Shown: one piece after another, positions 22,940-38,762 of the stretch
How positions within the stretch are numbered: position 1 is the stretch's first letter
How the letters are laid out: each line of letters opens with the position of its first letter
Source: Clostridia bacterium
Lineage (GTDB): Bacteria > Bacillota > Clostridia > Christensenellales > CAG-138
Assembly (NCBI GenBank): GCA_045603585.1
Contig: JAZUMK010000030.1
Location: forward strand, 6,607 to 70,606
Length of the DNA stretch: 64,000 nucleotides
Reading direction: 5' to 3'
The notes under the pieces: generated by a model
The model's input: only the letters and a program-made list of their open reading frames with translations
Databases searched by the model: none
Told to the model about the DNA's origin: nothing
Translations under genes and position numbers: made by a program

Positions 22940-23917
22940 TTAAGATAACGCTGTATAGGTGGGGCGCTGAGCGTCACCCACTCTTTGAATTTTGCCATTC
23001 ATGTAAAGATGCTGCAAATGTGACAGCGCTTCGCCGCAGGCAAACCATTTCTGCATCAGCGGGAAGTCAGCAAAGGTGTTGCGAATGGACCATGTCATTT
23101 GTGAAGCAACCTGGAAAGCGCTCAAGGGCTTGTCTGCTTTGCTCAGTATGTCAATAACCTCGTTCAAACGCACTTCATGGTGATCCATAAGCTGCTGAAT
23201 GCGCTGCTGCGGATCATCGGGCAGCTCGCGGTGTGCTGTAAAGAGGCGATTGATGGTATAGCTCTGCAGCTTTTTAAGGTTGGCAAGGTAAATGCCGAGA
23301 TAGTCATTTTCCATATCCCATGCCATGATATTCGGCGTGATGCGGCCAAGAACATGGTCGCCGCAGAACAGGTTGCCGTTTTCGGGATCATAAAGACCGA
23401 CCTGTCCCGGAGAGTGACCGCTCAAATCCAGCACTTCAAAATTAAAATCGCCTACGGATAATGTATCACCGGGGGCAACATATGTGAAATCTACAATAAA
23501 TTCGGGCTTATGCACATACGCAACATGGTTTTTACCCAGAAGGGATTCTTCCGGAGGGGTCCCTGCAATACGGTTGATTTCCGTAATGAAATCAAAGAAC
23601 TCCGCATTTTGGAAGCGATTGATCAAGGCTCCGTCGAGCCTGCTGGTATATATATGGTTATTGGAGGTTTTCAGCTTGGCGATCAAACCGCTGTGGTCAG
23701 CGTGCAGGTGTGTGACGAATACATCGGTTTTGTCGGGATCAAAATCCAATTCACGCATGCATTTCTGCATGATGTCCCAGCTTTCCTCGGTGTTAAAGGC
23801 AGTGTCGATGATGAGGTTTCTGGAATCGCCCTTGATAAAGTAGGAATTGATCCACTTCAACGGGCTGTTGACCAGCGGGATAGGGGCGGTAAAGACGTTT
23901 TTACATAATTCTTGCAT
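22940..23917 (-). CDS. MBL-fold metallo-hydrolase
   Basis: It has the metal-binding motif THLHADHSG, with further downstream His/Asp residues that may complete the site. Confidence 0.85.
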   Translation of the reverse strand: MQELCKNVFTAPIPLVNSPLKWINSYFIKGDSRNLIIDTAFNTEESWDIMQKCMRELDFDPDKTDVFVTHLHADHSGLIAKLKTSNNHIYTSRLDGALINRFQNAEFFDFITEINRIAGTPPEESLLGKNHVAYVHKPEFIVDFTYVAPGDTLSVGDFNFEVLDLSGHSPGQVGLYDPENGNLFCGDHVLGRITPNIMAWDMENDYLGIYLANLKKLQSYTINRLFTAHRELPDDPQQRIQQLMDHHEVRLNEVIDILSKADKPLSAFQVASQMTWSIRNTFADFPLMQKWFACGEALSHLQHLYMNGKIQRVGDAQRPTYTALS

Positions 23918-23939
23918 GTGCGTTATTCTCCGGAAATTT

Positions 23940-24515
23940 CTAGAGTTCGCTTAGTTTTGAGGCAAATTCTCTGGCGTGCGCTTCCTTTTCGGCGTCCATA
24001 AATACGCTTTTATAGCCAAGGTCGCGCTCTGCAAGCATGCCCACATATTCAAGAGCAGAATGCTTGCAATAGCGTATTACACCGGTCTCCCATGTATCAG
24101 CACCCTTTTCAGGGCGATAGCCGCATGTGGTTATAAGGGCCACCTTCTTGCCTGCCCATATAGAGGGCCCTTTTTCATCGCCGTAGTATTTGTTCATGCC
24201 ATATACCAATCTATCCAGTACAGCCTTCATGGGAGGCGTGCAGTACCAGGAGTATATGGGGGTTGCAAGTACCAGCATATCGCAGCTGAGCACGCTGTCA
24301 AATATTTCCTGCATATCATCCTTCTGGGGGCAGCCGAATATGCTCCAATCCCTTTGACAGGAGCGGCAGGCATGGCAAGGCTGCAGGTTTTTGTCGTATA
24401 GCCATATAAGCTCACAATCACAACCTTTTTTCTGCATTTCATCCATAAAGGGACGCAGAAGCTGAATGGTATTGCCTTCTTTACGAGGACTGCCCATCAA
24501 AATACATACGCGCAT
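23940..24515 (-). CDS. Flavodoxin-like NAD(P)H-dependent FMN reductase / iron-sulfur flavoprotein-like
   Basis: The N-terminus is MRVCILMGSPRKEGNT, a flavodoxin-like fold, and there is a Cys cluster CHACRSC. Confidence 0.75.
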   Translation of the reverse strand: MRVCILMGSPRKEGNTIQLLRPFMDEMQKKGCDCELIWLYDKNLQPCHACRSCQRDWSIFGCPQKDDMQEIFDSVLSCDMLVLATPIYSWYCTPPMKAVLDRLVYGMNKYYGDEKGPSIWAGKKVALITTCGYRPEKGADTWETGVIRYCKHSALEYVGMLAERDLGYKSVFMDAEKEAHAREFASKLSEL

Positions 24516-24588
24516 AATATTTTCCTTTCTGCAAAGCTGCTTGTCAAACATGCTCTTTTATTTGAAGTAATCCATATTCCCTAATAAG

Positions 24589-24667: not shown

Positions 24668-25774
24668 CTATTTGCCGGCCTTTGCTGCCTTAACGGCTTC
24701 GGTCAGCATGGGGGCGACCTTGAACAGGTCACCTACGATGCCGTAGGATGCAACCTCAAAGATGGGTGCATCGGCATTCTTGTTCACGGCGATGATGCAC
24801 TCGGAATCCTGCATACCTGCGCGATGCTGAATGGCGCCGGAAATGCCCAGAGCAACATAGATGCGGGGATGTACGGTCTTGCCGGTCTGACCAACCTGGT
24901 GATCGGCGCTTATCCAGCCGGAGTCAACGCAGGCACGGGAAGAACCAACTACGCCGCCCAGAGCATCTGCCAGTTCCTGTGCAAGGGCGATGCCCTTTTC
25001 GGGATCCTTGCTGATGCCGCGGCCTACGGAAACGATAACATCGGCACCGATAAGGTCTACCAGTTTCTTGGCAACCTTCTGCACTTCGAGAACTTCAACA
25101 TGAATATCGGAAGCGCTGAGCTGTACGTCCACGTTTTCGATCACGGTCTTTGCTGCGCCTGCCTCATCGTAGGGCTGGGTCTGCATAACGCCGGGGCGAA
25201 CGGTGGACATCTGGGGACGGAAACGGGGGCAGATAATGGTAGCCATCAGGTGACCGCCGAATGCGGGACGGGTCATCTTCAGGTTGGTGTTCTGCTCAAA
25301 TTCGGTGTTGTCCACATCAATGGTGGAGGTGGTCTTAAGGAAGTCCTTGTACTTATCCACGTCTACATCCAGATGGGTGCAGTCTGCGGTAAGGCCGGTG
25401 TGCAGCCTTGCTGCGCAGCGGGGGCCAAGGTCACGGCCCAGATTAGTTGCGCCGATGAGGAATATCTCAGGCAGTTTATCCTGAATAAGGTCGCAAATTA
25501 CCTTGGTATAGCCGTCGGTGGTATAGTCCTTAAGCAGGGGGCTGTTGCAGTAGTAAACCTTATCTGCACCATAGCCGCCGAGGGACTTTATCTGAGCTTC
25601 TTCTATATCGGAGCCGAGAAGTACACCGCACAGTTCAACGCCCAGGTCATTGGCCAGCTTGCGTCCTTCGGAGAGCAGCTGGTGGCTAATGGACATTATA
25701 ACGCCGTCGCGCTGTTCGCAGAAAACCCATACGCCCTTGAAGGCAGCGGTATCATAGGATTTGAATTCAGCCAT
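24668..25774 (-). CDS. etfA: Electron transfer flavoprotein alpha subunit
   Basis: The 368-aa protein has a C-terminal FAD-binding region (IYVALGISGAIQHRAGM) and an EtfB partner immediately upstream. Confidence 0.9.
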   Translation of the reverse strand: MAEFKSYDTAAFKGVWVFCEQRDGVIMSISHQLLSEGRKLANDLGVELCGVLLGSDIEEAQIKSLGGYGADKVYYCNSPLLKDYTTDGYTKVICDLIQDKLPEIFLIGATNLGRDLGPRCAARLHTGLTADCTHLDVDVDKYKDFLKTTSTIDVDNTEFEQNTNLKMTRPAFGGHLMATIICPRFRPQMSTVRPGVMQTQPYDEAGAAKTVIENVDVQLSASDIHVEVLEVQKVAKKLVDLIGADVIVSVGRGISKDPEKGIALAQELADALGGVVGSSRACVDSGWISADHQVGQTGKTVHPRIYVALGISGAIQHRAGMQDSECIIAVNKNADAPIFEVASYGIVGDLFKVAPMLTEAVKAAKAGK

Positions 25775-25791: not shown

Positions 25792-26592
25792 TTAGATAAG
25801 ATGTTTGCTGTCCAGGATGCCGATCAGCTGATCCACAGTGGACTTGTCAGCGCCTTCCAGCATCATGCCGGCTCCCTTGACCGGGGGAGAAAAGGACTTA
25901 TATACATTGGTGGGAGATCCCTTAAGACCGATGGTGGTGGCATCGATGAGGGGATCATCCTTCAGGGTGTTGTAATCGAATACATTCAGAGGCTTATTGT
26001 AGCATTCCATAATGCCGCGAACGGTCATATAGCGGGGCTTGTTCAGCTCCTTGACGCAGGTAATGAGGCAGGGAGTATTGGCCTTGAGCATCATGTAGCC
26101 ATCCTCGAGAAGGCGCTTTACAACAACGGACTTGCCTTCCAGCTTGATATCGGCGGCGTAGCTGATCTGGGGCAGATTCAGCTTTTCAGCGATCTGGGGA
26201 CCAACCTGAGCGGTATCGCCGTCGATTGCCTGACGGCCGCAGAATACGATATCGTCGGCTTCTACGCCGATCTTGTTGATAGCGGCAGCCAGGATCTGGG
26301 AAGTGGCATAGGTATCGGAACCGCCGAACTCACGGGCAGATACCAGAACAGCGCGGTCAGCACCCATTGCGAGCACTTCGCGGAGCATTCCTTCTGCGGG
26401 AGCGGGGCCCATGGAAACTGCTATAACTTCGCAGCCGGTTTCGTCCTTCAGCTGCAGGGCGGCTTCAACGGCAGCAAGGTCATCGTGGTTGGTTATCGCA
26501 GCCATCTTGCTGCGGTCCATAGTGCCGTCTTCCTTAACAGCAACTACGCCGGTGGTATCCGGAACCTGCTTTACGCATACAATACACTTCAT
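25792..26592 (-). CDS. etfB: Electron transfer flavoprotein beta subunit
   Basis: The 266-aa protein begins MKCIVCVKQVPDT, the typical EtfB N-terminus. Confidence 0.9.
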   Translation of the reverse strand: MKCIVCVKQVPDTTGVVAVKEDGTMDRSKMAAITNHDDLAAVEAALQLKDETGCEVIAVSMGPAPAEGMLREVLAMGADRAVLVSAREFGGSDTYATSQILAAAINKIGVEADDIVFCGRQAIDGDTAQVGPQIAEKLNLPQISYAADIKLEGKSVVVKRLLEDGYMMLKANTPCLITCVKELNKPRYMTVRGIMECYNKPLNVFDYNTLKDDPLIDATTIGLKGSPTNVYKSFSPPVKGAGMMLEGADKSTVDQLIGILDSKHLI

Positions 26593-26612: not shown

Positions 26613-27755
26613 TCACTTCAAAAGCTCTTTGGCGATAACGATCTTCTGAACCTCGCTGGTGCCCTCGTAAATGGTGAGGATGCGAGCATCACGATAGATA
26701 CGCTCAATGGCGTAATCCTTCATATAACCATAACCGCCGTGGATCTGCAGCGCCTTTGCGGCAATCTCGTTTGCAACTTCAGCAGCATAGAACTTGGCCA
26801 TAGAAGAGTTCATGGCGGTAGGTTCGCCTCTGTCCTTCATGGCGGCGGCCTTAAGGTTCAGCAGCTTTGCAGCTTCCAGCTTGGTGGCCATTTCGGCCAG
26901 ATACCACTGGATACCCTGCTTGGTGGCGATGGGCTTGCCGAACTGGGAGCGCTGCTTTACATATTCAAGAGCAGTGTCAAAGGCAGCCTGTGCTTCGCCG
27001 CAGGCCTGTGCTGCAACGCCGATACGGCCGCTTTCAAGGCCGCTCATGGCTACGTTGAAGCCCTTGCCGACCTGACCCAGAACCTGAGACTTGTGAACTC
27101 GGCAATCCTCCAGAATCAGCTCGGAAACGGCTGCGGCGCGGATGCCCATCTTATCTTCGAGCTTACCTATAATGAAGCCGGGAGTGTCGCGATCCACGAT
27201 GAAAGCGGTCATGCCGCCGTGGCTTCTCTTTTTCTTATCGGTAACTGCGAAAACCAGAGCGTATGCGCCCTCATTGGGACCCAGGTTGCTTATGAAGCAC
27301 TTGGAACCGTTAAGTACCCAATAATCGCCATCCTGAACAGCAGTGGTCTGAAGGCTGCCTGCGTCAGAACCTGCACCGGGTTCGGTAAGACCGAATGCAC
27401 CCAGCTTGCCTTCGACGCAGGACATGCGCAGATACTTCTGCTTCTGCTCTTCGTTGGCATTCTTTACCAGTATGCCGTTTACCAGAAGCTGAACTACGAA
27501 CATCTCGGAAGTGCTGGAGCAGGCACGGGCAATTTCCATGGAAACCAGGGCCTTTTCAACTTCGCCCAGACCGGATCCGCCGTACTCTACGGGAACATTT
27601 ACACCCAGAAGGCCCAGCTTTGCCAGCTTGGTAACTGCTTCGGCGGGGAATCTACTGGTGCGATCCCATTCATCCGCATAAGGAGCGATCTCGTTATCGC
27701 AGAATTCACGGGTCATTTTTACGAGCATTTTTTGCTCTTTTGTCAGTTCGAACAA
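26613..27755 (-). CDS. Acyl-CoA dehydrogenase, short-chain (Bcd-like); substrate not assignable
   Basis: The 380-aa protein is collinear by eye with clostridial butyryl-CoA dehydrogenase. The catalytic Glu lies in IYEGTSEVQ. Confidence 0.9.
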   Translation of the reverse strand: MFELTKEQKMLVKMTREFCDNEIAPYADEWDRTSRFPAEAVTKLAKLGLLGVNVPVEYGGSGLGEVEKALVSMEIARACSSTSEMFVVQLLVNGILVKNANEEQKQKYLRMSCVEGKLGAFGLTEPGAGSDAGSLQTTAVQDGDYWVLNGSKCFISNLGPNEGAYALVFAVTDKKKRSHGGMTAFIVDRDTPGFIIGKLEDKMGIRAAAVSELILEDCRVHKSQVLGQVGKGFNVAMSGLESGRIGVAAQACGEAQAAFDTALEYVKQRSQFGKPIATKQGIQWYLAEMATKLEAAKLLNLKAAAMKDRGEPTAMNSSMAKFYAAEVANEIAAKALQIHGGYGYMKDYAIERIYRDARILTIYEGTSEVQKIVIAKELLK

Positions 27756-27775: not shown

Positions 27776-29080
27776 TTAGATTAATATACCGAGTTGTTTT
27801 GCAGCACTTGTAAGTTCATCGCGGAAATTGGGGTGTGCTATAGAGATAAGCGCCTTTGTCCTCTGGGACAGAGTCTTTCCTCTGAGCTTGGCCACGCCGT
27901 ATTCTGTTACGATGTAATCCACGTCATTTTTGCTGGTTGTAACAAGCGCGCCCTTGGAAAGTGTAGGGGCTATTCTGCTGACAGTTCCGCCTTTGGCAGT
28001 GGAGGGGAAGGCGATGAAGCTCTTACCGCCCTTGGACTGCACTGCTCCGCGCACATAATCAGCCTGTCCACCTGAACCGGACATGTGCTTTGTTCCCATG
28101 GATTCGGCACATACCTGACCGTAGAAGTCCACCTCAAGGGCAGCATTTACGGAGATAAAGTTGGGGTGCTGTGCAATAACGTTGGGGTCGTTTACGTAAT
28201 CCACCGGAAGCATTAAAAATGCGGGATTGTCATTTATAAAGTCATATGTGCGCTTGGTGCCAAGAACCAGTGTAGCAACGCTTTTGCCCTTGTGTATGGG
28301 CTTGAGTTGGTTGGTAACCACGCCGCTTTCGATCATGTCCACCATGCTTTCGGTAAAAAGCTCGGTGTGGATGCCCATGTCGTGCTTATTCTGTCTCAGG
28401 GCAAGGCCAACAGCCTCGGGGACTGCACCGATACCAAGCTGCAGGGTTGCTCCGTTGGGGATTTCCTCAGCTATCATTCCGCCTATAACGTGGCTTATCT
28501 CATCAATGGCAGTGGCGGGCAGCGCAGGCAGAGGGGTGTCGCTTTCGCAAAGAGCTGCAACCTGAGAAATATGAATCATGGGGGAACCGAATGTTCTTGG
28601 CATATTCGGATTTACTTCCAAATAAATGCGCTTTGCCTTGTTGTACAGTACCTCACTGTATGAGCCTACCGCTCCGCTGGAAAACCATCCGTGGCTGTCC
28701 ATCGGGGAAACAGTGGCAAAGAAGGCATCGGTGTCCACATAATCCCTGTGAAGGGAAGGAATATCACGATAATGGCATGACATAATGTCCGCGCGGCCTT
28801 CATTGACAGCCTTGCGCAAACCGCCGCCGGAAAACCAGGATACAGGGGTAATACCCTGGGAGGCCTCAGGACTTAAAGCGGAAAGGGGCATAACATCCAG
28901 TACGGAATGCAGCTTTACATCCTTGATGTCGCCGGCTTTGGCTCTTTCACCTATCTCGTTTATAATGTTTGTGGGTATAGCTGCGGCAATATCCATAGTA
29001 CAGTTCCAACCGGATTGTACCTGATCGGCTATCTGCTTTGCCGAGCACAGCTTTGATTTGTATTGTTCGCTAAATTCCAT
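27776..29080 (-). CDS. Acetyl-CoA hydrolase/transferase-family CoA-transferase (4-hydroxybutyrate/butyryl-CoA:acetate type)
   Basis: It is collinear with the Cat2/AbfT family (LQLGIGAVPEAV, GSGGQADYVRGA, VTEYGVAKLRGK). I place the start at MEFSEQYKSKL because AAGGAGAG lies upstream. Confidence 0.85.
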   Translation of the reverse strand: MEFSEQYKSKLCSAKQIADQVQSGWNCTMDIAAAIPTNIINEIGERAKAGDIKDVKLHSVLDVMPLSALSPEASQGITPVSWFSGGGLRKAVNEGRADIMSCHYRDIPSLHRDYVDTDAFFATVSPMDSHGWFSSGAVGSYSEVLYNKAKRIYLEVNPNMPRTFGSPMIHISQVAALCESDTPLPALPATAIDEISHVIGGMIAEEIPNGATLQLGIGAVPEAVGLALRQNKHDMGIHTELFTESMVDMIESGVVTNQLKPIHKGKSVATLVLGTKRTYDFINDNPAFLMLPVDYVNDPNVIAQHPNFISVNAALEVDFYGQVCAESMGTKHMSGSGGQADYVRGAVQSKGGKSFIAFPSTAKGGTVSRIAPTLSKGALVTTSKNDVDYIVTEYGVAKLRGKTLSQRTKALISIAHPNFRDELTSAAKQLGILI

Positions 29081-29160
29081 AAGCATCTCTCCTTTGGGGC
29101 AGAGCAAGTACGATAAGTAATGTACTTGCAAATACCCTGAAACAGATGAAAGATTAATTA

Positions 29161-29592
29161 TTAACCGATAACAACCAGAACATCGCCGGAGTTAACAGTA
29201 GCGCCCTTAGCGGTATTTACGGCAGTAACGGTGCCGTTTACTCCTGCGAAGATTTCATTTTCCATCTTCATGGCTTCAAGAATGACAACAACACTGTCTG
29301 TGGAGACGGTATCGCCAACCTTTACCTTAACATCAAGTACATTGCCGGGCATGGGAGCGGTTATGCTGGTTGCATCAGCAGCAGGAGCAACGGGGACAAC
29401 GGGAGCTGCAACGGGAGCAGGAGCTGCAACGGGAGCAGGAGCTGCTGCGGGGGCTGCGCCGGCGGGGACCCTGGTGAGGGGAGTTCTGGAAAGGGAAGTT
29501 CTGGAAAGAGAACGGGCGGGGGAAACTGCACCGACTTCTTCTACTTCAACTTCATAAGAGTTATTGCCTACATTTACGATAAATTTACGCAT
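29161..29592 (-). CDS. gcdC: Biotin carboxyl carrier protein with an Ala/Pro linker (GcdC / decarboxylase gamma-like)
   Basis: It has the biotinylation motif EAMKMENEI and the linker AAPAAAPAPVAAPAPVAAPVVPVAPAA. Confidence 0.85.
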   Translation of the reverse strand: MRKFIVNVGNNSYEVEVEEVGAVSPARSLSRTSLSRTPLTRVPAGAAPAAAPAPVAAPAPVAAPVVPVAPAADATSITAPMPGNVLDVKVKVGDTVSTDSVVVILEAMKMENEIFAGVNGTVTAVNTAKGATVNSGDVLVVIG

Positions 29593-29634
29593 ATATACTT
29601 ACTATCCTCCCAAGTTTAATTGTGAAAATTGCTT

Positions 29635-30006
29635 TTATGCTTCGGTCATAATTGCCATTACGGCACCTATGACAGCTATCAGTTCATTCTGATCGGCAGA
29701 GCCACTGCTGATTTTTCTTATGGAACGAATGCGCATTCCTTCCATATTACCATCACAGTAGGAGGCGATTGATGCGGCGATAACGGCATCAAAGAGCTTC
29801 CTGTCAGTATGCATCAGGTCGTTTTCGGCAGGCTGAGAAACAGCGGCTGTCTGGGGCTGACCGCTTGCGGAAGCAGCGGTCTGCTGGGGCTGGGATTTAT
29901 CCTTGAGAATGGCGCTCATCAGCTTTGTTAAACAGATGAGGCAAATTAACCCAAAGAATACGGTTCCCATGCCTAAAAACAAAACAAACAAAGCATTAAC
30001 TTCCAA
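29635..30006 (-). CDS. OadG-family small membrane protein (decarboxylase anchor subunit, GcdD-like)
   Basis: It has a single N-terminal TM segment (ALFVLFLGMGTVFFGLICLICL) followed by a Gln/Ala-rich soluble tail. I propose a TTG start at 30006, 7 nt after an AAGGAGA. The longer ORF-track N-terminus has no RBS. Confidence 0.55.
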   Translation of the reverse strand: MEVNALFVLFLGMGTVFFGLICLICLTKLMSAILKDKSQPQQTAASASGQPQTAAVSQPAENDLMHTDRKLFDAVIAASIASYCDGNMEGMRIRSIRKISSGSADQNELIAVIGAVMAIMTEA

Positions 30007-30147
30007 AATAGTATCTCCTTTGTGTTTGATATTCCATTGGCAACGGGTAAAGCTTAGATCGACCGGCTGCAGTGTGTTCGCAATACACAAGCGTGTGCAG
30101 CAAAGCAGTATTTGCGAATGGCGGAGCAGCACATGCAGCAAATATGG

Positions 30148-30918
30148 TTAATCAGTAAAAGCCGGAGGCCGCTTTTCAAGAAAAGCGCTGATACCCTCGG
30201 TGTGATCGGCAGTGGTAAAGGCTTCTTTGAAGCATTCTGCCTCAGCCATGAGGGAAGAATGAAGCTGGTTTTCTATACCGATGTACATTGCCCTTTTGGC
30301 TAACGCAACGGCGCTTTTACTATTCTTGGCGATAGAAGCAGCGAGAGCCAGACAGTCATCCATAAGGTTTTCAGGTTCGCTCAGCTCATCTGCCAGACCC
30401 AGTTCCTCTGCATCGGCAGCGGCAATGATTTTTGCGGTGCTGATGAGCTGAAAGGCCTTTGAAAAGCCAACGACCCGGGAAAGACGCTGGGTGCCGCCAA
30501 AGCCGGGAATAAGTCCCAGAGTTACTTCGGGGAGACCGAGCTTTGCCTTGGAAGAAACAATGCGCATATCGCAGGCCAGAGCAAGCTCCAATCCGCCGCC
30601 CAATGCATAACCGTTTACTGCGGCTATAACAGGCTGGGGCAGCTCGGCAATGCCATTAAGCACTCTGTGACCCAGATGGGCAAAGTCCTTGGCTTCTTCT
30701 GCGGAGAACTTTGACATGGAAGCTATATCGCCGCCTGATGCAAAGGATTTACCTGTGCCGGTAAGAATTATTACCTTAACATCCTTCTGCTGGGAAGCTT
30801 CATGAAGGGCGTTTTCCAGGTCGAGCAGCAGGGATTTATCTATTGCGTTTAAGGTTTCGGGCCTGTTTAGTGTTATGATCGCTGTATTATTCAGCTTTTC
30901 AACTGTTACGCTTGACAT
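30148..30918 (-). CDS. Enoyl-CoA hydratase (crotonase family)
   Basis: Both catalytic Glu contexts are present (GGGLELALACD and LGLPEVTLGLIPG). Confidence 0.9.
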   Translation of the reverse strand: MSSVTVEKLNNTAIITLNRPETLNAIDKSLLLDLENALHEASQQKDVKVIILTGTGKSFASGGDIASMSKFSAEEAKDFAHLGHRVLNGIAELPQPVIAAVNGYALGGGLELALACDMRIVSSKAKLGLPEVTLGLIPGFGGTQRLSRVVGFSKAFQLISTAKIIAAADAEELGLADELSEPENLMDDCLALAASIAKNSKSAVALAKRAMYIGIENQLHSSLMAEAECFKEAFTTADHTEGISAFLEKRPPAFTD

Positions 30919-30927
30919 GCCGGACCT

Positions 30928-31770
30928 CTATTGATAGGTATAGAAGCCGCGGCCGGACTTTTTACCGTATCTGCCCGCTTCAACATACTGACGAAGCAGG
31001 GGGCAGGGACGATACTTGGGATCGCCATAGCCTTTGTACATGATCTCCAGTACAGAGAGGATGGTATCAAGGCCGATGAAGTCAGCAAGCTGAAGGGGAC
31101 CCATGGGGTGAGCCATACCCAGCTTCATGATTTCGTCAATGCCTTCGGGAGTGGCAACGCCTTCGTATACGCAGTAGATCGCCTCGTTAATCATAACCTG
31201 TAGAACCCTATTGGAAACAAAACCGGGAACATCACGTACTTCAATGGCAACCTTACCCATTTCCTCGCTGGTTTTGCAAACAAAATCGGTGGTTTCCTGA
31301 TCGGTTTCAAGGCCGCGGATAACTTCTACCAGGGTCTTTACAGGAACGGGATTCATAAAGTGCATGCCAATAACCTTCTCGGGACGCTTGGTAACGGCTG
31401 CAATGCTGGTGATAGGGAGGGAGGAGGTATTGGTGGCAAAGATGGTCTCAGGCTTGCAGATCTCATCCAGCTGCTTGAAAACGCTGCTCTTGATCTCCAT
31501 GTTTTCGATGATGGCTTCAATTACCAGATCGCAGTCAGCAGCATCCTGCAGGGAGGAAGAGGTGGTCAGCTTGCTGAGAACTTCTTCTTTTCTTTCTGCG
31601 GGGATCTTGCCCTTGTCCACATTCCTCTGCAGATTGCCGGCAATATAGGCCATACCCTTTTCAAGGGCTGCGGCTGCAGTGTCGGAGAGGATGGTATCAT
31701 AGCCTGCCTGTGCACAGCACTGTGCAATACCGCTGCCCATCTGGCCAGCGCCTAATACAAAAACTTTCAT
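30928..31770 (-). CDS. hbd: 3-hydroxybutyryl-CoA dehydrogenase
   Basis: It has MKVFVLGAGQMGSGIAQ (Rossmann fold) and the typical 280-aa Hbd layout. Confidence 0.9.
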   Translation of the reverse strand: MKVFVLGAGQMGSGIAQCCAQAGYDTILSDTAAAALEKGMAYIAGNLQRNVDKGKIPAERKEEVLSKLTTSSSLQDAADCDLVIEAIIENMEIKSSVFKQLDEICKPETIFATNTSSLPITSIAAVTKRPEKVIGMHFMNPVPVKTLVEVIRGLETDQETTDFVCKTSEEMGKVAIEVRDVPGFVSNRVLQVMINEAIYCVYEGVATPEGIDEIMKLGMAHPMGPLQLADFIGLDTILSVLEIMYKGYGDPKYRPCPLLRQYVEAGRYGKKSGRGFYTYQ

Positions 31771-31802: not shown

Positions 31803-32996
31803 TTAATCGTCTATAGTTACATAAACAGCGTCGCCCTGAGCCATTGCGGAGCATATTGCGCATATGCCGCTCTTCTTGCCGGAACGCCTGAGCTCGTAAA
31901 TAAGGGTCATAAGGATTCGTGCGCCGGTTGCGCCGATGGGATGTCCTACGGCTACTGCACCGCCGTTTACATTTACCCTTTCATTGCGGGTTTCGTCGTC
32001 CATGCCGATGACCTTGCAGCTTACCAAGGGAACGGCGGCAAAGGCTTCGTTTATCTCATACAGATCCACGTCCTTGTAGCTCAAATTGTTCTTCTTGAGC
32101 AGCTTGGAGGTTGCAAGCCCGGGGACTGTGGAAATCAGATGGGACTGCTGGGCAGCCTGTGAATAATCGCGTATGGTGGCCAGTATGGGAGCGCCAAGCT
32201 CTTCGGCCTTTTCTCTTGACATAATTACTATTGCAGAAGCGCCGTCATTGGTGCCGGGAGCATTGCCGGCGGTAACAGTGCCGTCAGGAATGAATACCGG
32301 CTTAAGGGCGGCCAGACCTTCAAGCGTGGAATCGGGTCTGGGAGATTCGTCCTTATCCATTACCATGGTGCCTTTGCGGGTTTTAATGGTAACAGGGAAG
32401 CGCTCATCATCGAATTTATGGGCGGCTTCACCTGCGGCCCACAGTTTCTGGGAACGGAGAGCCCATTCATCCTGCATTTCTCTGGTTACGCCGTATTCTA
32501 CGGCAACTTTGCCGCCTATAACGGCCATGTGAACTTTATTTTCGGGGCAGGTAAGGCCGTCGTAAAGCATGGAGTCTTCCAGAGCAACGGAACCCATACG
32601 GGTGCCCCAACGGGTTCCAAGGGAAAGATAGGGGAGATTGCTCATGCTTTCCATGCCGCCTGCAACGATGATATCGGCATCGCCTGCTTTTATCATCTGT
32701 GCGCCCAAAACAACGGCTTTGAGAGCAGAGCCGCAAGCCTTGTTGATTGTCAGCGCGGGTACGTCGTGAGGAATACCGCCCAAAATAGATGCCTGTCGTC
32801 CGGGGACCTGACCTGCGCCATCGGGCACTACGATACCCATGATGGTCTCATCCACCATGCTGCCTTCAATGCCTGCACGGGCAAGTGCCTCACGTATAGC
32901 CATGCCGCCAAGTTCTGCTACGCTGATGTCCTTGAGCATACCGCCGAACTTGCCGAATGGGGTTCGTGCTGCGCTTACAACTACAACTTCCTTCAT
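31803..32996 (-). CDS. Acetyl-CoA C-acetyltransferase (biosynthetic-type thiolase)
   Basis: It has the active-site Cys in NKACGSALKAV, the C-terminal NVNGGAVAVGHPIGATGARI, and CSAMAQG. Confidence 0.92.
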   Translation of the reverse strand: MKEVVVVSAARTPFGKFGGMLKDISVAELGGMAIREALARAGIEGSMVDETIMGIVVPDGAGQVPGRQASILGGIPHDVPALTINKACGSALKAVVLGAQMIKAGDADIIVAGGMESMSNLPYLSLGTRWGTRMGSVALEDSMLYDGLTCPENKVHMAVIGGKVAVEYGVTREMQDEWALRSQKLWAAGEAAHKFDDERFPVTIKTRKGTMVMDKDESPRPDSTLEGLAALKPVFIPDGTVTAGNAPGTNDGASAIVIMSREKAEELGAPILATIRDYSQAAQQSHLISTVPGLATSKLLKKNNLSYKDVDLYEINEAFAAVPLVSCKVIGMDDETRNERVNVNGGAVAVGHPIGATGARILMTLIYELRRSGKKSGICAICSAMAQGDAVYVTIDD

Positions 32997-33020: not shown

Positions 33021-33233
33021 TTACCCCCAGATATTGAAGCCATCGTCATCCATGTTGATTTCCTTCAGCAGGCAACGACTTCCGCCGGGGCAATCCGTTT
33101 TCTTATTGCAGTCTACGGGCTGTTCAAATGCATCTATCTGACAGCCCCCGCCATTATTGGCCGAAACCAGGATGGTGAGGGTGACCTCACCACCGATTTC
33201 GCACCTTTTTGTCATTTTGTATTCAAATTCCAT
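33021..33233 (-). CDS. Hypothetical 70-aa Cys-rich protein
   Basis: The ORF fills the gap between the two thiolase genes (7 nt and 24 nt spacers) and uses codons like its neighbours. It has five Cys, no recognisable family and a weak RBS. Confidence 0.45.
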   Translation of the reverse strand: MEFEYKMTKRCEIGGEVTLTILVSANNGGGCQIDAFEQPVDCNKKTDCPGGSRCLLKEINMDDDGFNIWG

Positions 33234-33240: not shown

Positions 33241-34419
33241 TTAGCCTAAGTCCATACCGCAGATGGTTATACCGGCTACGCAGCAGTAGGGACGGCCGCC
33301 CATGTTATGGGTCATGCCCAGACGTACGTTTTCTCTCTGACGCTTGCCGGCCTTGCCGTGGAACTGGAGCCACATTTCGTAGATCATCCTCAGGCCGCTG
33401 GCGCCGATGGGGTGACCGAAAGACTTGAGGCCACCGTCAATATTGATGGGCAGCTTGCCGTCTCTGTCATACTTGCCGTCCATGAAGTCCTTCCAGCCCT
33501 GACCGCGTTCACTGAAACCGAGGTCTTCGCTGATGAGCAGCTCGGTGATGGTGAAGCAGTCGTGCACTTCGGCAAGGCTGATCTGCTCCTTGGGGTTGGT
33601 TACACCGGCTTCCTTATAGGCGGCCTGTGCGGCATTGATGGTTTCGGAAACGTAGGTAAAGTCGTACTTGGAGCTCTTCTTGTTAAAGCCGTTGCCGGAG
33701 GCGATCTGCAGAGCCTTTACATACATGGGATCCTTGCGGTAGTTCTTTGCAAGGCTGGCTCTGGTAACGATGGCGCAGGAGCAGCCGTCGGATACGCCGG
33801 AGCAGTCCATTACGGTGAGGGGATATGCTATGTAAGGCATATTCAGTATCTTTTCCATGGGAACTTCCTTACGGTACATTGCCTTGGGGGTAAGTGCGCC
33901 GTTGGAATGGTTCTTGAAGGAAATATGAGCAAGTGCCTCGTGAAGCTGCTCGCCGCTGATGCCGTACTTATGGGCATAGGCAGAAGCGCACAGGGAGAAG
34001 GCAGCGGGAGTGGACATGAAGGGTTCGGTCATGTCGGACTCAACGTGGGGTACAACCAATCCGCTGTAACCGCCGTCCTTAAGCTTTTCAGCGCCGATGG
34101 CCATGGCAACATCGCAGGCGCCGGAAGCTACTGCGTAGCATGCGTTGCGGAAGGCATCGGTGCCGGAGCAGCACTTGTTTTCCAGGCGGGTTACGGGCTT
34201 GTATTCGCTCATCAGTCTGGTGGATAGAGCATCGCCTGCAAGGCCGGATTCAAAAGTGCCGAACCAGAATGCGTCAATATCCTTAAGCTCGATACCGGCA
34301 TCCTTCAGGGCCTCCTGAGATGCTTCTACGATAAGATCTTCAAGGCTGGCATCAAAGCGCTCTCCAAAATAGCTGCAGCCCATGCCGATAACGGCACATT
34401 GATCGCGTATACTTGCCAT
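33241..34419 (-). CDS. SCPx/archaeal-type thiolase-like protein
   Basis: It has the active-site region LENKCCSGTDAF and the C-terminal DGGLKSFGHPIGASG. ATG 34419 (MASIRDQ) lies 8 nt after an AAGGAGG and just downstream of the upstream gene's stop codon. Confidence 0.85.
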   Translation of the reverse strand: MASIRDQCAVIGMGCSYFGERFDASLEDLIVEASQEALKDAGIELKDIDAFWFGTFESGLAGDALSTRLMSEYKPVTRLENKCCSGTDAFRNACYAVASGACDVAMAIGAEKLKDGGYSGLVVPHVESDMTEPFMSTPAAFSLCASAYAHKYGISGEQLHEALAHISFKNHSNGALTPKAMYRKEVPMEKILNMPYIAYPLTVMDCSGVSDGCSCAIVTRASLAKNYRKDPMYVKALQIASGNGFNKKSSKYDFTYVSETINAAQAAYKEAGVTNPKEQISLAEVHDCFTITELLISEDLGFSERGQGWKDFMDGKYDRDGKLPINIDGGLKSFGHPIGASGLRMIYEMWLQFHGKAGKRQRENVRLGMTHNMGGRPYCCVAGITICGMDLG

Positions 34420-34420
34420 A

Positions 34421-35839
34421 TTAGTTGCCTCCTTTTTCACGCTTCAAAACGGATTTCCAGTAATATGTGCGAATTCCGTCTACATTCTGCAGACAGCGGA
34501 AGGACATATCGACTTCCTTGCCGATGGCGATTTCCTCGGGCTCACAGTCCACGATGTTGGTGAAGATGCGGCCGCCGCCTTCGTAGTCAATAACGGCGAT
34601 CATGCTTGGGGGATCTTCGGAAACGGTGATCTTATCTACGGTATAGGTGGCGATGGTACCCTTCCTGCCAAGGAAGCGGTAGGGCTCATTCTGGTCTACG
34701 CTGTAGCACTCAAGGCAGGTACGTGCACCGGGATATTGAACGGCTCCGCAAACCTTGCAGCGAGTGCCGTAAAGGGCAAAATTCTTGCCGGGAACACGGT
34801 AGTATTCAGGCAGAGACATACGCCTGAGGGGAGGGCGGCGCTGGGGCTCAGTGGTGAGAAGTCTGCGCCAGCGGAGGTACTTTTCATAGGGCATGGAGGT
34901 ACGCTTATGCTCGATGCTGTACTTTACTCTCTTGGGAATAGAGGCAACTGCATCGGTGGTTTCAAATACCATAGCATCCACGCCTTCGCCGTAGCCCAGG
35001 AAAAGGATCTTGTCGCCGGGGTTGCTGTTTTCCAGTGCGGAGCACAGCATCAGAGGAGCTGCGGCACAGCCGGTGTTGCCAACCATATCGTACATATTTT
35101 CCTGAACCTGTTCAGGAGTGAAGCCCAGAGCCTTGGCCATGTCGCCCTGATAACGGGCGGTATGGGCATATATAACGGCTTTGGTGATATCCTTGGTTTC
35201 AAGGCCGCACTTTTCAAGAACCTTCTGAGCGGCTTCCTTCATCAGGGGCATGTACTGCTGAGTGATGGCAAAGCGCTCTTCCCAGCTCTTTACGAAGGGC
35301 TCGCCTTCGGATCTCCACAGATCAAAGAAGTCTCTGGAAATGGAAACGCTGCCCTTCAGCTCTGCAATAAGATCGCTGCTGCCGATTACGAATGCAGCTG
35401 CGCCATCGCCGAAAAGAAGTTCATTTGCGCCGTCGGCAAATGCGGTTCTGCAGTCAGCAGCGGCAACCAGAACGTCGTCGCCCTTTTCTGCATCGGCAAA
35501 GGCAGACAGCATAGCAGTGGAACCGCAGCGAAGAGAGCTGGCAAAGTCAGCGGTCTTAACATCGGTACCCATGTCCAGTGCAGCAGCCACAACTGTGGAG
35601 CACTGTTTTTCTTTGTAGGGAAGGGTGGTGGAGGCCAAGTAGATGCCGTTTACAGAGGGGGATTCCTCCAGTCCGCAGCAGTCAACCGCAGCGGCAACAG
35701 CCATAGTGATGCTGTCTTCGTCATAGCTGGCAACTGCCTTTTCACCGCGCTCTCCCTTTTTGGAATAAGCGTCGCAGATGCGTTTGCGTTCCAATCTGTT
35801 GAAAGGAATGTAAACACCGCAGGATTTAATACCTGTCAC
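34421..35839 (-). CDS. HMG-CoA-synthase-like condensing enzyme fused to a C-terminal DUF35 (zinc-ribbon + OB-fold) domain
   Basis: The N-terminal ~340 aa carry HMGCS-like Glu (SYDEDSITMA), Cys (SLRCGSTAM) and His (YAHTARY) contexts. The C-terminal ~130 aa carry CKVCGAVQYPGARTCLEC followed by an OB-like segment. It uses a GTG start 9 nt after an AAGGAGG. Confidence 0.8.
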   Translation of the reverse strand: MTGIKSCGVYIPFNRLERKRICDAYSKKGERGEKAVASYDEDSITMAVAAAVDCCGLEESPSVNGIYLASTTLPYKEKQCSTVVAAALDMGTDVKTADFASSLRCGSTAMLSAFADAEKGDDVLVAAADCRTAFADGANELLFGDGAAAFVIGSSDLIAELKGSVSISRDFFDLWRSEGEPFVKSWEERFAITQQYMPLMKEAAQKVLEKCGLETKDITKAVIYAHTARYQGDMAKALGFTPEQVQENMYDMVGNTGCAAAPLMLCSALENSNPGDKILFLGYGEGVDAMVFETTDAVASIPKRVKYSIEHKRTSMPYEKYLRWRRLLTTEPQRRPPLRRMSLPEYYRVPGKNFALYGTRCKVCGAVQYPGARTCLECYSVDQNEPYRFLGRKGTIATYTVDKITVSEDPPSMIAVIDYEGGGRIFTNIVDCEPEEIAIGKEVDMSFRCLQNVDGIRTYYWKSVLKREKGGN

Positions 35840-35918: not shown

Positions 35919-36020
35919 AGTGTAGCATTGGCGGATTTTAAAGTCAAGAAAAATCATTGACAAATATAAAAATACGAGATATAATTATAATTTTAGTATT
36001 CACTTAAGGTTTCATTGAAA
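35919..36020. promoter_or_regulatory. Bidirectional promoter/operator module, copy 1 (operon side and tetR side)
   Basis: Core sequence: AAAGTCAAGAAAAATCATTGACAA (35940-35963).
- Minus strand: TTGACT, 17-nt spacer, TACACT (35924-35919), pointing to the 12-gene operon.
- Plus strand: TTGACA, 17-nt spacer, TATAAT (35980-35985), pointing to tetR.
- Palindrome TTTCATTGAAA at 36010-36020. Confidence 0.55.
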
Positions 36021-36172
36021 AAGCCAACGAGTTCAACACTTGCACATATTCTCAAAATGATGTATTATCTTGTTACATTCGGCGGAGAAATGGCGCAATA
36101 ATGTGAGATTGTCTCATTTTTTAGAGTTGCCGCCCGGGTAAATACCATAAGTTAGGAGGAGTTGCATTCAGC

Positions 36173-36775
36173 ATGGAACACACCCCAATTAAAAAACGTA
36201 AACAGCAAGCAATTGAAACAAAGGAGCGTATCTATAATGCCACCATCAGCCTGATCAGGGAGCGTGGATTCAGCAATGTCCTGATGGAGGATATTACAAA
36301 GGCGGCGGGCGTATCTGCAGGATTGTTTTATAACTATTTTGCCAATAAGGCAGATGTTATTACCGAGGCATTCTGCTATCGCAGCTGTAAGTATTACGAT
36401 GCTATGGAGCAGGAGCTGCAGGATATAGAGGGCATAGCAAAGCTTCGAATGATAATAAAGCATATGGCCACTCTGCGTCAGGAAATATACGATAAAGAAG
36501 AGCTGAGATATCACCATGTAAACATTCTTGAGACACATAAGCGCCTTGAGGATGTTAGGGAAAACAGCAGCAAACTTCATAAAATGATAATGGAATCTCT
36601 TACGGAGGCGAAGGCCGCCGGTGAGATCCCTGCAGCAATGGACATAGATAATATGTGCAATGTTGTAATGCTGGTGCTCAGAGGGGCCACATGGGAGTAT
36701 CTGGCTGCTACAGGAGAATATCCATTTGAAGAGCGGACCTGGGACATAATTTCAGGCTATATTAAGGGAATATAA
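36173..36775 (+). CDS. TetR/AcrR-family transcriptional regulator
   Basis: The 200-aa protein has an N-terminal HTH (RIYNATISLIRERGFSNVLMEDITKAAGVSAGLFYNYF). Confidence 0.9.
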   Translation: MEHTPIKKRKQQAIETKERIYNATISLIRERGFSNVLMEDITKAAGVSAGLFYNYFANKADVITEAFCYRSCKYYDAMEQELQDIEGIAKLRMIIKHMATLRQEIYDKEELRYHHVNILETHKRLEDVRENSSKLHKMIMESLTEAKAAGEIPAAMDIDNMCNVVMLVLRGATWEYLAATGEYPFEERTWDIISGYIKGI

Positions 36776-36829: not shown

Positions 36830-36930
36830 TTTCAATGAAACCTTAATTGAAATAAAACCTTTAATTATACTCTATAATTTTATGCTTGTCAATAATGATT
36901 CTTGACTTTGCCTATACCCAATGTTATACT
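36830..36930. promoter_or_regulatory. Bidirectional promoter/operator module, copy 2 (inverted relative to copy 1)
   Basis: Core sequence: TTGTCAATAATGATTCTTGACTTT (36886-36909).
- Plus strand: TTGACT (36902-36907), 17-nt spacer, TATACT (36925-36930), pointing to the gcdA-like gene.
- Minus strand: TTGACA, 17-nt spacer, TATAAT, pointing back toward tetR.
- Palindrome TTTCAATGAAA at 36830-36840. Confidence 0.55.
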
Positions 36931-36995: not shown

Positions 36996-38762
36996 ATGGA
37001 TACAGAATATGTAATGCACCGTTATTTTCAGGGGATGCCCCAGATAGGTACTCCGCTTGCCTCTCGGGATACTGCAAATGAGCAGCAGCTCAGGCAGATA
37101 GAAGAGGAACTGGATGAAGCTTTGAGAGTTTTGCTGGAGGCAGGCGTAAGTGACGATTCTCTCAATAAGAGAGGTCAGCTCACTGCTCTTCAGAGGCTTG
37201 GTGTCCTTATTGACGAGGGTACCTGGCGTCCCATTAACAGCCTGTTCAATCCCGAATTCAATGAAGATGACGGATGCAGCGTTCTTACCGGTATGGCAAA
37301 GGTGGAAGGTAAGTGGACTGTTATCATCGCCTTCGATAATAAGAAAACCGCAGGCGCATGGGTTCCCGGTCAGGGCCGTAAGATCGTCCGTGCTACCGAG
37401 ATCGCCGAATCCCTGCGTGTTCCCCTTATATATGTACTTAACTGCAGCGGTATGAACCTGCTTCTGCAGGAAAAGCTGTTCAGCGGCCGTCTGTGCAGCG
37501 GCACTCCCTTTTATCGTCATTCCAGACTGCAGCAGGAAGGCATGCCTGTTCTTATCGGCATCTATCAGACCAATCCTGCCGGCGGCGGATACCATGCAAT
37601 CAGTCCTTCTCTGCTTATCGCCAAGGATGATGCCAACTTTGCAGTAGGCGGCTCCGGTATACTGGGCGGTATGAGCTCCAAGGGCTTCTATACTGCTGAA
37701 AGCGCACGTACCCTTATAAATTCTGTGACCAGCTCAGAAACTCCTCCCGCACCCGGCCAGATGAATGTTCATTACTCTCAGACCGGATTTGTAAGAGAAG
37801 TTTACGGCGAAGAAGAAGAGGTGCTGCTGGCGCTGCGTAAGTATGTTGCCGCAATGCCGGCTTATGATCCTGAGTTCTTCAGAGTAGCTCCTCCCATGGA
37901 GCCCCTGTATCCCGGTGAGGATCTGTACACATTGGTTCCTTTCAACCAGCGCAGGCCCATCAATATGCCTGAAGTGGTTGCCCGTCTTGTGGATAACAGC
38001 GAATTTGACGAGTATAAACCGGATTACGGTCCCGAAATTTTCTGCGGTCTCTGCCGCTTGAGCGGTTATCTTGTAGGTATCGTTGGCAACCGTCAGGGTC
38101 TGCTGATGAATTACCCCGAATATCGCCAGAACAGCGTAGGCCTGGGCGGCAAGCTGTATCGTCAGGGTCTCATCAAGATGAATGAGTTCACCACAATGTG
38201 CGCTCGTGACCGCATACCTCTCATCTGGATACAGGATACCACCGGTATCGATGTTGGCGATGATGCTGAGGTTGCAGAAGTTCTGGCTCTGGGTCAGGCT
38301 CTGGTATACTCTGTGCAGTCTGCTGGTGTTCCTCAGATGGAGCTGACCATACGTAAGGCCAATGGCGCCGCGCACTTCCTTATGGGCGGTCCTCAGGGCA
38401 ACGACAGCTGCGTATTCAGCTTCTGCACTGCAGCCAGCGAATACAATCCCATCGTAGCGGAAACCGCTGCAGCTGCTGTATACTCCAGGCGTCTGGTAAG
38501 AGATGATGCTGCCGGCAAGGATATTCAGCCCACCATCGATCTTATGAATGCGCTTATCCAGCGTTATAAGGATACTTCCGAGAATCCCCGCTTTATCGTA
38601 AAGACCGGTCTTGCTGAGGAATGCCTGCCTATGCCTTGCATCAGAGATTACTTTGTTACATTTGCTGAGGCTGCATATCAGAATCCTGCAAGCACATGCC
38701 CCCCTCATCTGATGCTGACTCCCCGCGTGATTAAGGATTATAACGACCTTAAGAACAAGTAA
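36996..38762 (+). CDS. gcdA: Carboxyltransferase of the glutaconyl-CoA decarboxylase alpha-subunit type
   Basis: The 588-aa protein is collinear by eye with my recollection of Acidaminococcus GcdA. Shared segments include YFQGMPQIGTPL, NKRGQLTALQR, DNKKTAGAWVPGQ, GIYQTNPAGGGYH, LLMNYPEY, GGKLYRQGLIKMNEF, WIQDTTGIDVG and GGPQGND. Confidence 0.85.
   Translation: MDTEYVMHRYFQGMPQIGTPLASRDTANEQQLRQIEEELDEALRVLLEAGVSDDSLNKRGQLTALQRLGVLIDEGTWRPINSLFNPEFNEDDGCSVLTGMAKVEGKWTVIIAFDNKKTAGAWVPGQGRKIVRATEIAESLRVPLIYVLNCSGMNLLLQEKLFSGRLCSGTPFYRHSRLQQEGMPVLIGIYQTNPAGGGYHAISPSLLIAKDDANFAVGGSGILGGMSSKGFYTAESARTLINSVTSSETPPAPGQMNVHYSQTGFVREVYGEEEEVLLALRKYVAAMPAYDPEFFRVAPPMEPLYPGEDLYTLVPFNQRRPINMPEVVARLVDNSEFDEYKPDYGPEIFCGLCRLSGYLVGIVGNRQGLLMNYPEYRQNSVGLGGKLYRQGLIKMNEFTTMCARDRIPLIWIQDTTGIDVGDDAEVAEVLALGQALVYSVQSAGVPQMELTIRKANGAAHFLMGGPQGNDSCVFSFCTAASEYNPIVAETAAAAVYSRRLVRDDAAGKDIQPTIDLMNALIQRYKDTSENPRFIVKTGLAEECLPMPCIRDYFVTFAEAAYQNPASTCPPHLMLTPRVIKDYNDLKNK

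Follow-up and report, generated by a model that had tools for sequence, protein, structure and literature searches.

Three of the four glutaconyl-CoA-decarboxylase-type subunits at one clostridial locus, with a resident beta subunit probably supplied in trans

Na+ pumps that depend on biotin are commonly regarded as enzymes of four fixed subunits, encoded together, and for glutaconyl-coenzyme A (CoA) decarboxylase, Gcd, the usual metabolic context is the hydroxyglutarate pathway of glutamate fermentation. We describe here a locus of a gut Clostridia bacterium, lying in a stretch of 64,000 nucleotides of contig C30 (the window, that is, the whole stretch analysed), that encodes a Gcd-type carboxyltransferase (GcdA, the alpha subunit), a biotin carrier (GcdC) and a membrane anchor (GcdD), with no gene in the window for the polytopic beta subunit that decarboxylates carboxybiotin. 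A division of gcd genes between operons has precedent, since in Acidaminococcus fermentans gcdA belongs to the hydroxyglutarate operon, some 15 kb from gcdDCB (PMC3035267). We found no precedent for a beta subunit that is unlinked and probably shared, nor for anchor and carrier subunits derived from those of the Oad Na+ pump. The reading that we favour, to which we give a probability of about 0.6, is that three of the four Gcd parts are encoded here and would work with a resident beta subunit in trans, as a scattered, modular version of a known enzyme.

Subunits at the locus and beta subunits elsewhere in the genome

Genes in the window were called from an open reading frame (ORF) listing together with Pfam and NCBIfam profile scans. 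Those on which the argument turns, with the two beta genes found on other contigs, are the following.

29161-29592, minus strand: gcdC, 143-residue biotin carboxyl carrier (PF00364, 67.9 bits)
29635-30006, minus strand: gcdD, 123-residue OadG-family single-helix membrane anchor (PF04277, 56.9 bits)
36996-38762, plus strand: gcdA, 588-residue 12S-type carboxyltransferase, alpha subunit (PF01039, 307 bits)
38789-39955, plus strand: family III (CaiB/BaiF-type) CoA-transferase, directly 3' of gcdA (PF02515, 304 bits)
C13:77171-78340: oadB, 390-residue beta subunit inside a complete oadG-carrier-oadB-oadA operon
C23:32261-33373: 371-residue beta subunit, free-standing between a two-component system and spoVT

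GcdA aligns over its full length with the solved structures of A. fermentans GcdA (1PIX, 747 bits) and Clostridium symbiosum GcdA (3GF3, 735 bits), with ~60% full-length identity to these two biochemically proven enzymes, and is the sole PF01039 gene in the genome. It is, as expected of a Gcd alpha subunit, of the 12S type and orthologous to proven GcdAs, with the caveat that it belongs to a divergent subclade. GcdC consists of an N-terminal anchor (MRKFIVNVGNNSYEVEVEE), a 22-residue insert, an Ala/Pro linker and a biotinyl domain with LEAMKMENEI (EAMKM), and would be the separate carrier with an (A/E)MKM biotinylation motif and flexible Ala/Pro linker that is expected of Gcd; the profile match agrees with an earlier note on this DNA, which had recognized a biotin carrier from EAMKMENEI and the linker. 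The OadG-like anchor named in the same note is likewise borne out: gcdD starts with TTG at 30006, 8 nt after an AAAGGAG ribosome-binding site, the same start is called in homologues of 84-85% identity, and the protein matches TIGR01195 with 39.1 bits, over the cut-off of 36.05, as a small single-helix anchor of the kind found in Gcd.

The earlier note had also described the Gcd-type parts as split across two strands, with the GcdA-like carboxyltransferase adjoining a family III CoA-transferase, and the ORFs and profile matches place gcdD and gcdC on the minus strand and gcdA, followed by the CoA-transferase gene, on the plus strand. The two groups are not truly scattered, however, but form divergent operons with a tetR gene and shared promoter/operator modules between them.

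A search of the whole assembly with the PF03977 profile confirms that the window lacks a Na+-pumping beta subunit, as the note had claimed: on contig C30 (90 kb) no gene scores over threshold, and the sole match is a 28-bit sub-threshold one inside the gcdD ORF. Two full-length PF03977 beta subunits (551 and 496 bits) are encoded off C30, on contigs C13 and C23. Both keep the equivalents of OadB D203, Y229, N373, G377, S382, R389 and N412, residues that OadB mutagenesis and structure papers report as essential, and whose positions were checked on chain 6IVA_A. A beta subunit with the key residues, as expected of Gcd, is present in the genome and not in the window, and it is not encoded with the other Gcd subunits in one operon or cluster; such co-encoding is typical of the family and not strictly defining, as A. 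fermentans already separates gcdA from gcdDCB. These two intact genes support the suggestion that the beta subunit is encoded elsewhere, yet apparently not as a single dedicated gcdB. The note had held that a single canonical gcdB elsewhere would make the system a standard, scattered pump; beta genes do exist elsewhere, but there are two of them, unlinked to gcd and unspecific to GcdA-bearing genomes.

The sub-threshold match in the gcdD ORF (29800-30039) scores 28-30 bits against a cut-off of 31.6 and covers profile positions 237-324; it probably reflects a compositional likeness of helix and linker and is not by itself to be taken as a beta remnant.

GcdC and GcdD resemble the Oad subunits encoded on C13. 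GcdC is 78% identical to the C13 carrier over aligned columns, with ~80-85% identity in the N-terminal anchor and the biotinyl domain (a count by eye on the alignment); its identity to canonical GcdCs is 40-47%. The GcdD helix, FVLxLGMGTVFFGLxCLIxLTKLMS, and the motif DRKxFDAxIAAxIA are nearly invariant with the resident OadG family; GcdD is about 50% identical to the C13 OadG and has no BLAST match among canonical GcdDs. Homologues of GcdD with 84-85% identity occur in loci L110-L112 in an identical gene order, and the next-nearest relatives are OadG genes in oad operons syntenic with that on C13. Because they stand near the C13 carrier and OadG and far from canonical GcdC and GcdD, the two proteins look like duplicates, that is paralogues, of the clade's own Oad carrier and anchor. 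Beyond what the Oad parts have, GcdC carries the insert and GcdD an additional tail at its C terminus; we speculate that these additions adapt the two subunits to a 12S-type head. The insert itself, a Ser/Arg/Thr/Leu-rich segment of 22 residues (SPARSLSRTSLSRTPLTRVP; GcdC residues 22-43, window 29460-29530) between the N-terminal anchor and the Ala/Pro linker, is kept in L110 and L111, whereas the resident Oad carrier is without it; in canonical GcdCs a shorter stretch, unrelated to it, stands at this place.

On the reading that we favour, GcdA would move the carboxyl group from the acyl-CoA onto biotin, which GcdC would bear on its flexible Ala/Pro arm; GcdD would tie the head to the membrane as an OadG-family single-helix anchor; and a resident beta subunit, acting in trans, would decarboxylate carboxybiotin and pump Na+. 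The crotonyl-CoA formed would be used on the spot by the crt, hbd and thl products of the operon and by Bcd, EtfAB and the CoA-transferase, yielding butyrate and acetate. A membrane complex is suggested because the membrane anchor gene adjoins the carrier gene. That the parts assemble, which beta they use, that Na+ is pumped and that glutaconyl-CoA is the substrate are all points that we infer from the genes.

Choice of the beta subunit

The C13 operon encodes OadG (101 residues), a carrier (127 residues), OadB (390 residues) and a 5S-type OadA (482 residues; HMGL-like plus PYC_OADA domains). Its beta subunit is 70% and 62% identical to the GcdBs of canonical clusters in Oscillibacter and Caproiciproducens and 79% identical to the OadB of locus L113; the C23 beta is 45-47% identical to the canonical-cluster GcdBs and the L113 OadB alike. 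Operon-encoded beta subunits thus appear to group together whatever the type of head, which fits the established view that the beta subunit sees carboxybiotin only.

The C23 beta has a different setting. A 48-residue single-helix ORF (C23:33390-33536) starts 14 nt after its stop codon, and an equivalent ORF of 41-78 residues follows the beta stop by 13-22 nt in 77 of 80 orthologous loci (L012-L091). Over its helix, this small ORF has a weak likeness to OadG (PF04277, E = 6e-4 in one member; hhalign E = 1.3e-4, 54% probability). In 78 of the 80 loci, the 8 kb to each side of the C23-type beta contain neither an alpha nor a carrier gene, the exceptions being L050 and L053, where a second beta and a carrier are found 3-4 kb away, and no neighbour of at least 80 residues within 3.5 kb on either side is common to more than 10 of the 80. 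The short downstream ORF is the only conserved neighbour, and the "orphan" C23 beta is, as judged from these comparisons, a predicted two-gene module of a beta subunit and a helix-only mini-anchor (C23:32261-33536; L007:9950-11225). Beta subunits of this type, with at least 58% identity and clearly apart from a paralogue class of ~50% identity, are present in 136 of the 301 genomes that sample the order. Assigning the C23 beta as gcdB by co-occurrence failed, as GcdA is found in 1 of the same 301.

We lean somewhat towards the C13 OadB-type beta over the C23 beta as the partner, because the GcdD helix and the GcdC domains are near-identical to the C13 parts, because the C13 beta resembles the two GcdBs of canonical gcd clusters, and because the C23 beta has its own mini-anchor. 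The alternative that the C23 beta with its 48-residue partner is instead a dedicated GcdB, so that the cell would have two complete pumps independent of each other, Gcd divided between C30 and C23 and Oad on C13, strikes us as unlikely, although it comes closest among the alternatives to the favoured one. It makes a neat count of the genome's parts, two alphas (one 12S-type and one 5S-type carboxyltransferase), two betas, two OadG-type anchors and two carriers; the C23 beta is intact and keeps all the key residues; and since ~80 orthologous loci show neither an alpha nor a carrier gene for it within 8 kb, its partners must be encoded elsewhere. Against this, the beta type is ancestral and widespread, and all but this one of the 136 genomes that carry it are without GcdA; it is less similar to canonical-cluster GcdBs (45-47%) than the C13 beta is (62-70%); its mini-anchor is its own and conserved; and no copy of the operator that marks the gcd locus lies at the C23 beta.

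Substrate, operon context and origin of the locus

The window GcdA belongs to a subclade (P0001-P0008) whose members are 75-98% identical to one another and at most 60% identical to all other GcdAs. At 219 alignment columns, 112 other GcdA-family homologues are at least 97% conserved; 37 of these columns are not retained across the subclade, 18 of them with one fixed replacement. The substrate may differ because of these 18 replacements, and a different vinylogous carboxy-acyl-CoA is possible on the strength of the alignment.

Loci of the subclade share a core in which tetR, gcdA and a family III CoA-transferase gene diverge from an HMGS-like::DUF35 fusion, a thiolase and an ORF of 65-70 residues, on all contigs read except L104, where tetR was not seen and the family III CoA-transferase lies ~7 kb from gcdA. 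The position of tetR is conserved in L101-L103 and L105-L110, and the trio of HMGS-like::DUF35, thiolase and small ORF stands beside gcdA in all subclade loci. The core is accompanied by Bcd, EtfAB, a CoA-transferase, Opp, a second 3-hydroxyacyl-CoA dehydrogenase and a flavin mononucleotide (FMN) reductase; thl-hbd-crt-gcdD-gcdC is additionally present only in the window and L110-L112. In the subclade loci read there is no beta gene nearby, and gcdA never adjoins hgdCAB, gctAB or gcdB. Such surroundings suggest that a Gcd-type carboxyltransferase works here in a pathway context not described before.

In the window, gcdD and gcdC are embedded in a 12-gene, butyrate-type operon on the minus strand, running from 35839 down to 24668 in the order HMGS-like::DUF35, SCPx-type thiolase, 70-residue ORF, thl, hbd, crt, gcdD, gcdC, CoA-transferase, Bcd, etfB and etfA; tetR, gcdA and the family III CoA-transferase gene are transcribed divergently from it. 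The remaining features are as follows.

34421-35839, minus strand: HMGS-like::DUF35 fusion, first gene of the operon
33241-34440, minus strand: SCPx-type thiolase (Pfam and NCBIfam)
33021-33233, minus strand: 70-residue Cys-rich ORF between the two thiolase genes, no Pfam match
31803-32996, minus strand: thl (Pfam and NCBIfam)
30928-31770, minus strand: hbd (Pfam and NCBIfam)
30148-30918, minus strand: crt (Pfam and NCBIfam); the thl-hbd-crt block is directly upstream of gcdD
27776-29131, minus strand: butyryl-CoA:acetate-type CoA-transferase, true start probably near 29080
26613-27755, minus strand: Bcd-type acyl-CoA dehydrogenase, closest to Clostridioides difficile Bcd 5OL2 (376 bits)
25792-26592, minus strand: etfB (Pfam and NCBIfam)
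24668-25774, minus strand: etfA (Pfam and NCBIfam)
36173-36775, plus strand: tetR-family regulator (PF00440), between both operons
35940-36030, no strand: promoter/operator module, copy 1, back-to-back sigma-70-like promoters and palindrome TTTCATTGAAA
36820-36909, no strand: promoter/operator module, copy 2, inverted, upstream of gcdA, palindrome at 36830
21900-47700, no strand: lineage-specific region of ~26 kb, the whole gcd/butyrate/Opp/second 3-hydroxyacyl-CoA dehydrogenase locus

The 70-residue Cys-rich ORF is probably a real small protein, because a gene is called at the equivalent position in every related cluster read (65-70 residues in L101-L105, L107-L110 and L112). Genes for a metallo-beta-lactamase-fold protein, an FMN-reductase/flavodoxin-like protein and the second 3-hydroxyacyl-CoA dehydrogenase (22940-24551 and 46129-47613) recur in L101, L102, L104 and L111; a 4HBT thioesterase (47125-47613) was seen in the window only. 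An Rfam scan of window positions 21-50 kb gave no matches.

On either side of tetR lies one copy of a ~90-nt module (inverted repeats I1/I2), the two copies being inverted relative to each other and each holding back-to-back sigma-70-like promoters, which include two 12/12 consensus matches, and the palindrome TTTCAWTGAAA. Of the two promoters of copy 1, the plus-strand one (35957-35985) matches the consensus at 12/12 and the minus-strand one (35963-35935) at 10/12; copy 1 would serve tetR in one direction and the 12-gene operon in the other. The plus-strand promoter of copy 2 (36902-36930) matches at 10/12, with TG. The 11-mer palindrome TTTCAATGAAA occurs three times in the 2.04-Mb assembly, always inside the window. 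Since both operons carry one type of promoter/operator module and the palindrome is confined to the window, we infer a single TetR-controlled regulon that would comprise gcdA and gcdD-gcdC. The third copy of the palindrome is at window position 61728, and shorter variants flank the intergenic region between Opp and the second 3-hydroxyacyl-CoA dehydrogenase at 45748 and 45883. On the minus strand of copy 2, a 12/12 sigma-70 promoter (36892-36864) points into the 3' end of tetR, with a strong hairpin terminator (36812-36790) just after it; possible readings are an insulated antisense promoter and a side effect of the inversion of the module.

The canonical hydroxyglutarate route was not recovered. 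When HgdA, HgdB, GctA and GctB of L114 and L116 were used as tblastn queries against the genome, the best matches were 20-24% identical, and GctAB was not found; the activator matches at 43-44% identity to the canonical queries. The pair of HGD-D proteins (424 and 386 residues) that gives the 20-24% matches to HgdA and HgdB is encoded on C11 with a BcrAD/BadFG-type activator, beside a LysR regulator (C11:23500-27209; L011:8492-12282). It is a 2-hydroxyacyl-CoA-dehydratase-like system with no CoA-transferase or dehydrogenase gene adjoining. The best named relatives of the family III CoA-transferase are succinate-glutarate and succinate-hydroxymethylglutarate CoA-transferases, which are distant, all well below the family cut-offs. 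A route from HMG-CoA to 3-methylglutaconyl-CoA is weakened by the HMGS-like module, in which the catalytic Glu, Cys and His are not aligned.

We consider it doubtful, and somewhat less probable than a dedicated GcdB on C23, that the same machinery acts on another vinylogous carboxy-acyl-CoA, such as 3-methylglutaconyl-CoA, which the family III CoA-transferase would supply as part of a dicarboxylate pathway not yet described. Such a change of substrate would fit the separateness of the subclade and its 18 fixed replacements at otherwise at least 97% conserved positions, the company of a family III CoA-transferase, TetR and the thiolase/HMGS-like/DUF35 pair in place of hgdCAB or gctAB, and the lack of canonical HgdAB and GctAB in the genome. 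It sits less well with the ~60% full-length identity to two proven GcdAs and with neighbouring genes that are ordinary C4 butyrate genes, and the HMGS-like module without its aligned catalytic residues makes it unlikely that HMG-CoA, and hence 3-methylglutaconyl-CoA, is made here.

The locus appears to be a newcomer in an otherwise conserved setting. The assembly is a metagenome-assembled genome (MAG) of 63 contigs and 2.04 Mb, with 90.7% completeness and 3% estimated contamination. GcdA orthologues occur in this genome alone among the 301 sampled from the order, as they do among the nine of the genus (the eight others are without), and in none of the 12 genomes with the nearest C23-beta orthologues (87-99% amino-acid identity); the butyryl-CoA:acetate-type CoA-transferase is likewise not found in a same-genus genome. 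The sequences on the two sides of the locus, at 4001-21830 and 49433-60000, are collinear with those of G337, a close relative (79-92% nucleotide identity), and in G337 the two flanking points lie just 3.5 kb apart. The gcd/butyrate/Opp locus is a lineage-specific region of ~26 kb (~21.9-47.7 kb) that is not in close relatives, and the beta genes are resident and older.

Weighing the readings and comparison with known systems

A number of findings weigh against a Gcd that borrows a resident beta subunit. Neither beta is linked to the gcd genes, and the locus operator was not found near the one on C13 or the one on C23. The C23 beta type is far more widespread than GcdA (136 against 1 of 301 genomes), so that Gcd does not explain its existence, and its OadG-like, helix-only partner may occupy the anchor site; the C13 beta already has its own alpha, gamma and carrier subunits, and sharing it would need either competition between heads or a surplus of beta. 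On the side of the substrate, the GcdA subclade carries its 18 fixed replacements (for example S113F, G168S, G191Q and L358Y), canonical HgdAB and GctAB are not in the genome by tblastn, and the sole acyl-CoA dehydrogenase of the locus is Bcd-like (376 bits to Bcd 5OL2) and not glutaryl-CoA-dehydrogenase-like (258 bits to the non-decarboxylating glutaryl-CoA dehydrogenase 3MPI). Finally, the MAG is only 90.7% complete.

The remaining alternatives turn on the inventory of biotin enzymes. A search of the genome for biotin carboxylase (PF02785) gave no match, the control being positive in 13 of 14 reference genomes. As a side observation, the genome has neither PF02785 nor a PF01039 gene other than gcdA, so that acetyl-CoA carboxylase seems to be absent, and with it the synthesis of malonyl-CoA for fatty acids, unless the genes lie in the missing ~9%.

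One resident motor might serve two heads: the GcdA head, with its duplicated Oad-type anchor and carrier, would dock on the Oad beta, the nearly identical carriers could visit both heads, and the complex would either pump Na+ or, as a membrane-bound transcarboxylase, pass CO2 from a glutaconyl-type CoA ester to pyruvate. We regard this as quite improbable; if true, it could explain how oxaloacetate is made in an organism without biotin carboxylase. Marginally less credible again is a transcarboxylase proper, an option raised in the earlier note, in which GcdA would load biotin with CO2 and the C13 5S-type OadA would hand it to pyruvate to give oxaloacetate, with little or no decarboxylation at a beta subunit. 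The genome does have the 5S-type OadA that this calls for, exactly one head of each of the 12S and 5S types, and no biotin carboxylase or pyruvate carboxylase, and the biotinyl domains of the two carriers are ~85% identical (by eye), so that each plausibly visits both heads. Yet gcdC is paired with a membrane anchor whose helix hardly differs from the one in the resident OadG, and not with a soluble scaffold, beta genes are available to both heads, there is no fused or adjacent 12S/5S arrangement as in the Propionibacterium enzyme, and no observation requires this reading.

Carboxyl transfer is reversible in principle in this enzyme family, but the carboxylation of crotonyl-CoA to glutaconyl-CoA, powered either by the Na+ gradient or by a biotin carboxylase that is unlinked and uses ATP, is most improbable: the lack of PF02785 removes the ATP-dependent partner that the note's proposal of a carboxylating direction needs, with GcdA as the sole PF01039 carboxyltransferase; the operon has a butyrate-forming layout, with the CoA-transferase and Bcd-EtfAB downstream of crotonyl-CoA; and the genome showed no enzyme that would consume glutaconyl-CoA. 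Equally remote is a joining of contigs from different organisms by assembly or binning, which the 63 contigs, the 3% estimated contamination and a GcdA unique to this genome among nine of the genus and 12 further close relatives might suggest, but which is countered by a metagenome contig (L110) with the same gcd arrangement, likewise with no beta in the 13 kb examined, and by the C23 beta neighbourhood, which is syntenic with the same close relatives as the two locus flanks; mis-binning of C30 itself is ruled out by a tetranucleotide profile typical of the genome (r = 0.974, rank 32 of 46) and by its two-sided synteny.

If three Gcd parts do work with a resident beta, the locus suggests that biotin-dependent Na+ pumps can be modular in evolution: the head would have arrived on a lineage-specific region, the anchor and carrier would have been recruited by duplicating Oad parts of the host, and the substrate-blind beta appears to be borrowed in trans. 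If confirmed, this would mean that pathway predictions that require a linked gcdB, for example in scoring glutarate- or glutamate-to-butyrate conversion in gut metagenomes, miss such systems. Two further uncharacterised systems emerge, namely a GcdA subclade whose partners are a family III CoA-transferase and a complex of thiolase, inactive HMGS and DUF35 in place of the hydroxyglutarate pathway, and a widespread two-gene membrane module of a beta subunit and a helix-only mini-anchor.

Compared with A. fermentans Gcd, the locus has a full-length GcdA homologue, a carrier with MKM and an Ala/Pro linker and a small single-helix anchor, and like it is divided into two transcription units with gcdA apart from the rest. 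In A. fermentans, however, gcdB is in one operon with gcdC and gcdD, and gcdA stands with gctAB and hgdCAB, whereas here the beta subunits are on other contigs, gcdD and gcdC lie inside a thl-hbd-crt...bcd-etf operon, and gcdA stands with TetR and a family III CoA-transferase in a genome without canonical hgdAB or gctAB. The Oscillibacter and Caproiciproducens clusters (L114 and L116) have a GcdA-family alpha 55-59% identical to the window GcdA and the same four types of subunit, with gcdD-gcdC-gcdB beside gcdA, hgdCAB and genes for a 2-hydroxyacid dehydrogenase and a family I CoA-transferase; the window GcdC (40-47% identical) and GcdD (no BLAST match) are not orthologues of theirs. The transcarboxylase of Propionibacterium (12S + 5S + 1.3S) resembles the genome in having one 12S-type and one 5S-type head, small carriers and no biotin carboxylase, but here both heads have membrane anchors and beta genes and each carrier gene adjoins an anchor gene, and neither a soluble scaffold nor 12S/5S gene linkage was found in the genome. 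It is the Oad Na+ pump (OadA/B/G; beta-gamma structures 6IVA and 6IWW), together with the C13 operon, that supplies the nearest relatives of GcdD and GcdC and whose key beta residues are kept; unlike Oad, the locus has a 12S-type acyl-CoA carboxyltransferase as its head in place of a 5S-type oxaloacetate carboxyltransferase, an extra C-terminal tail on GcdD and a 22-residue Ser/Arg/Thr-rich insert in GcdC.

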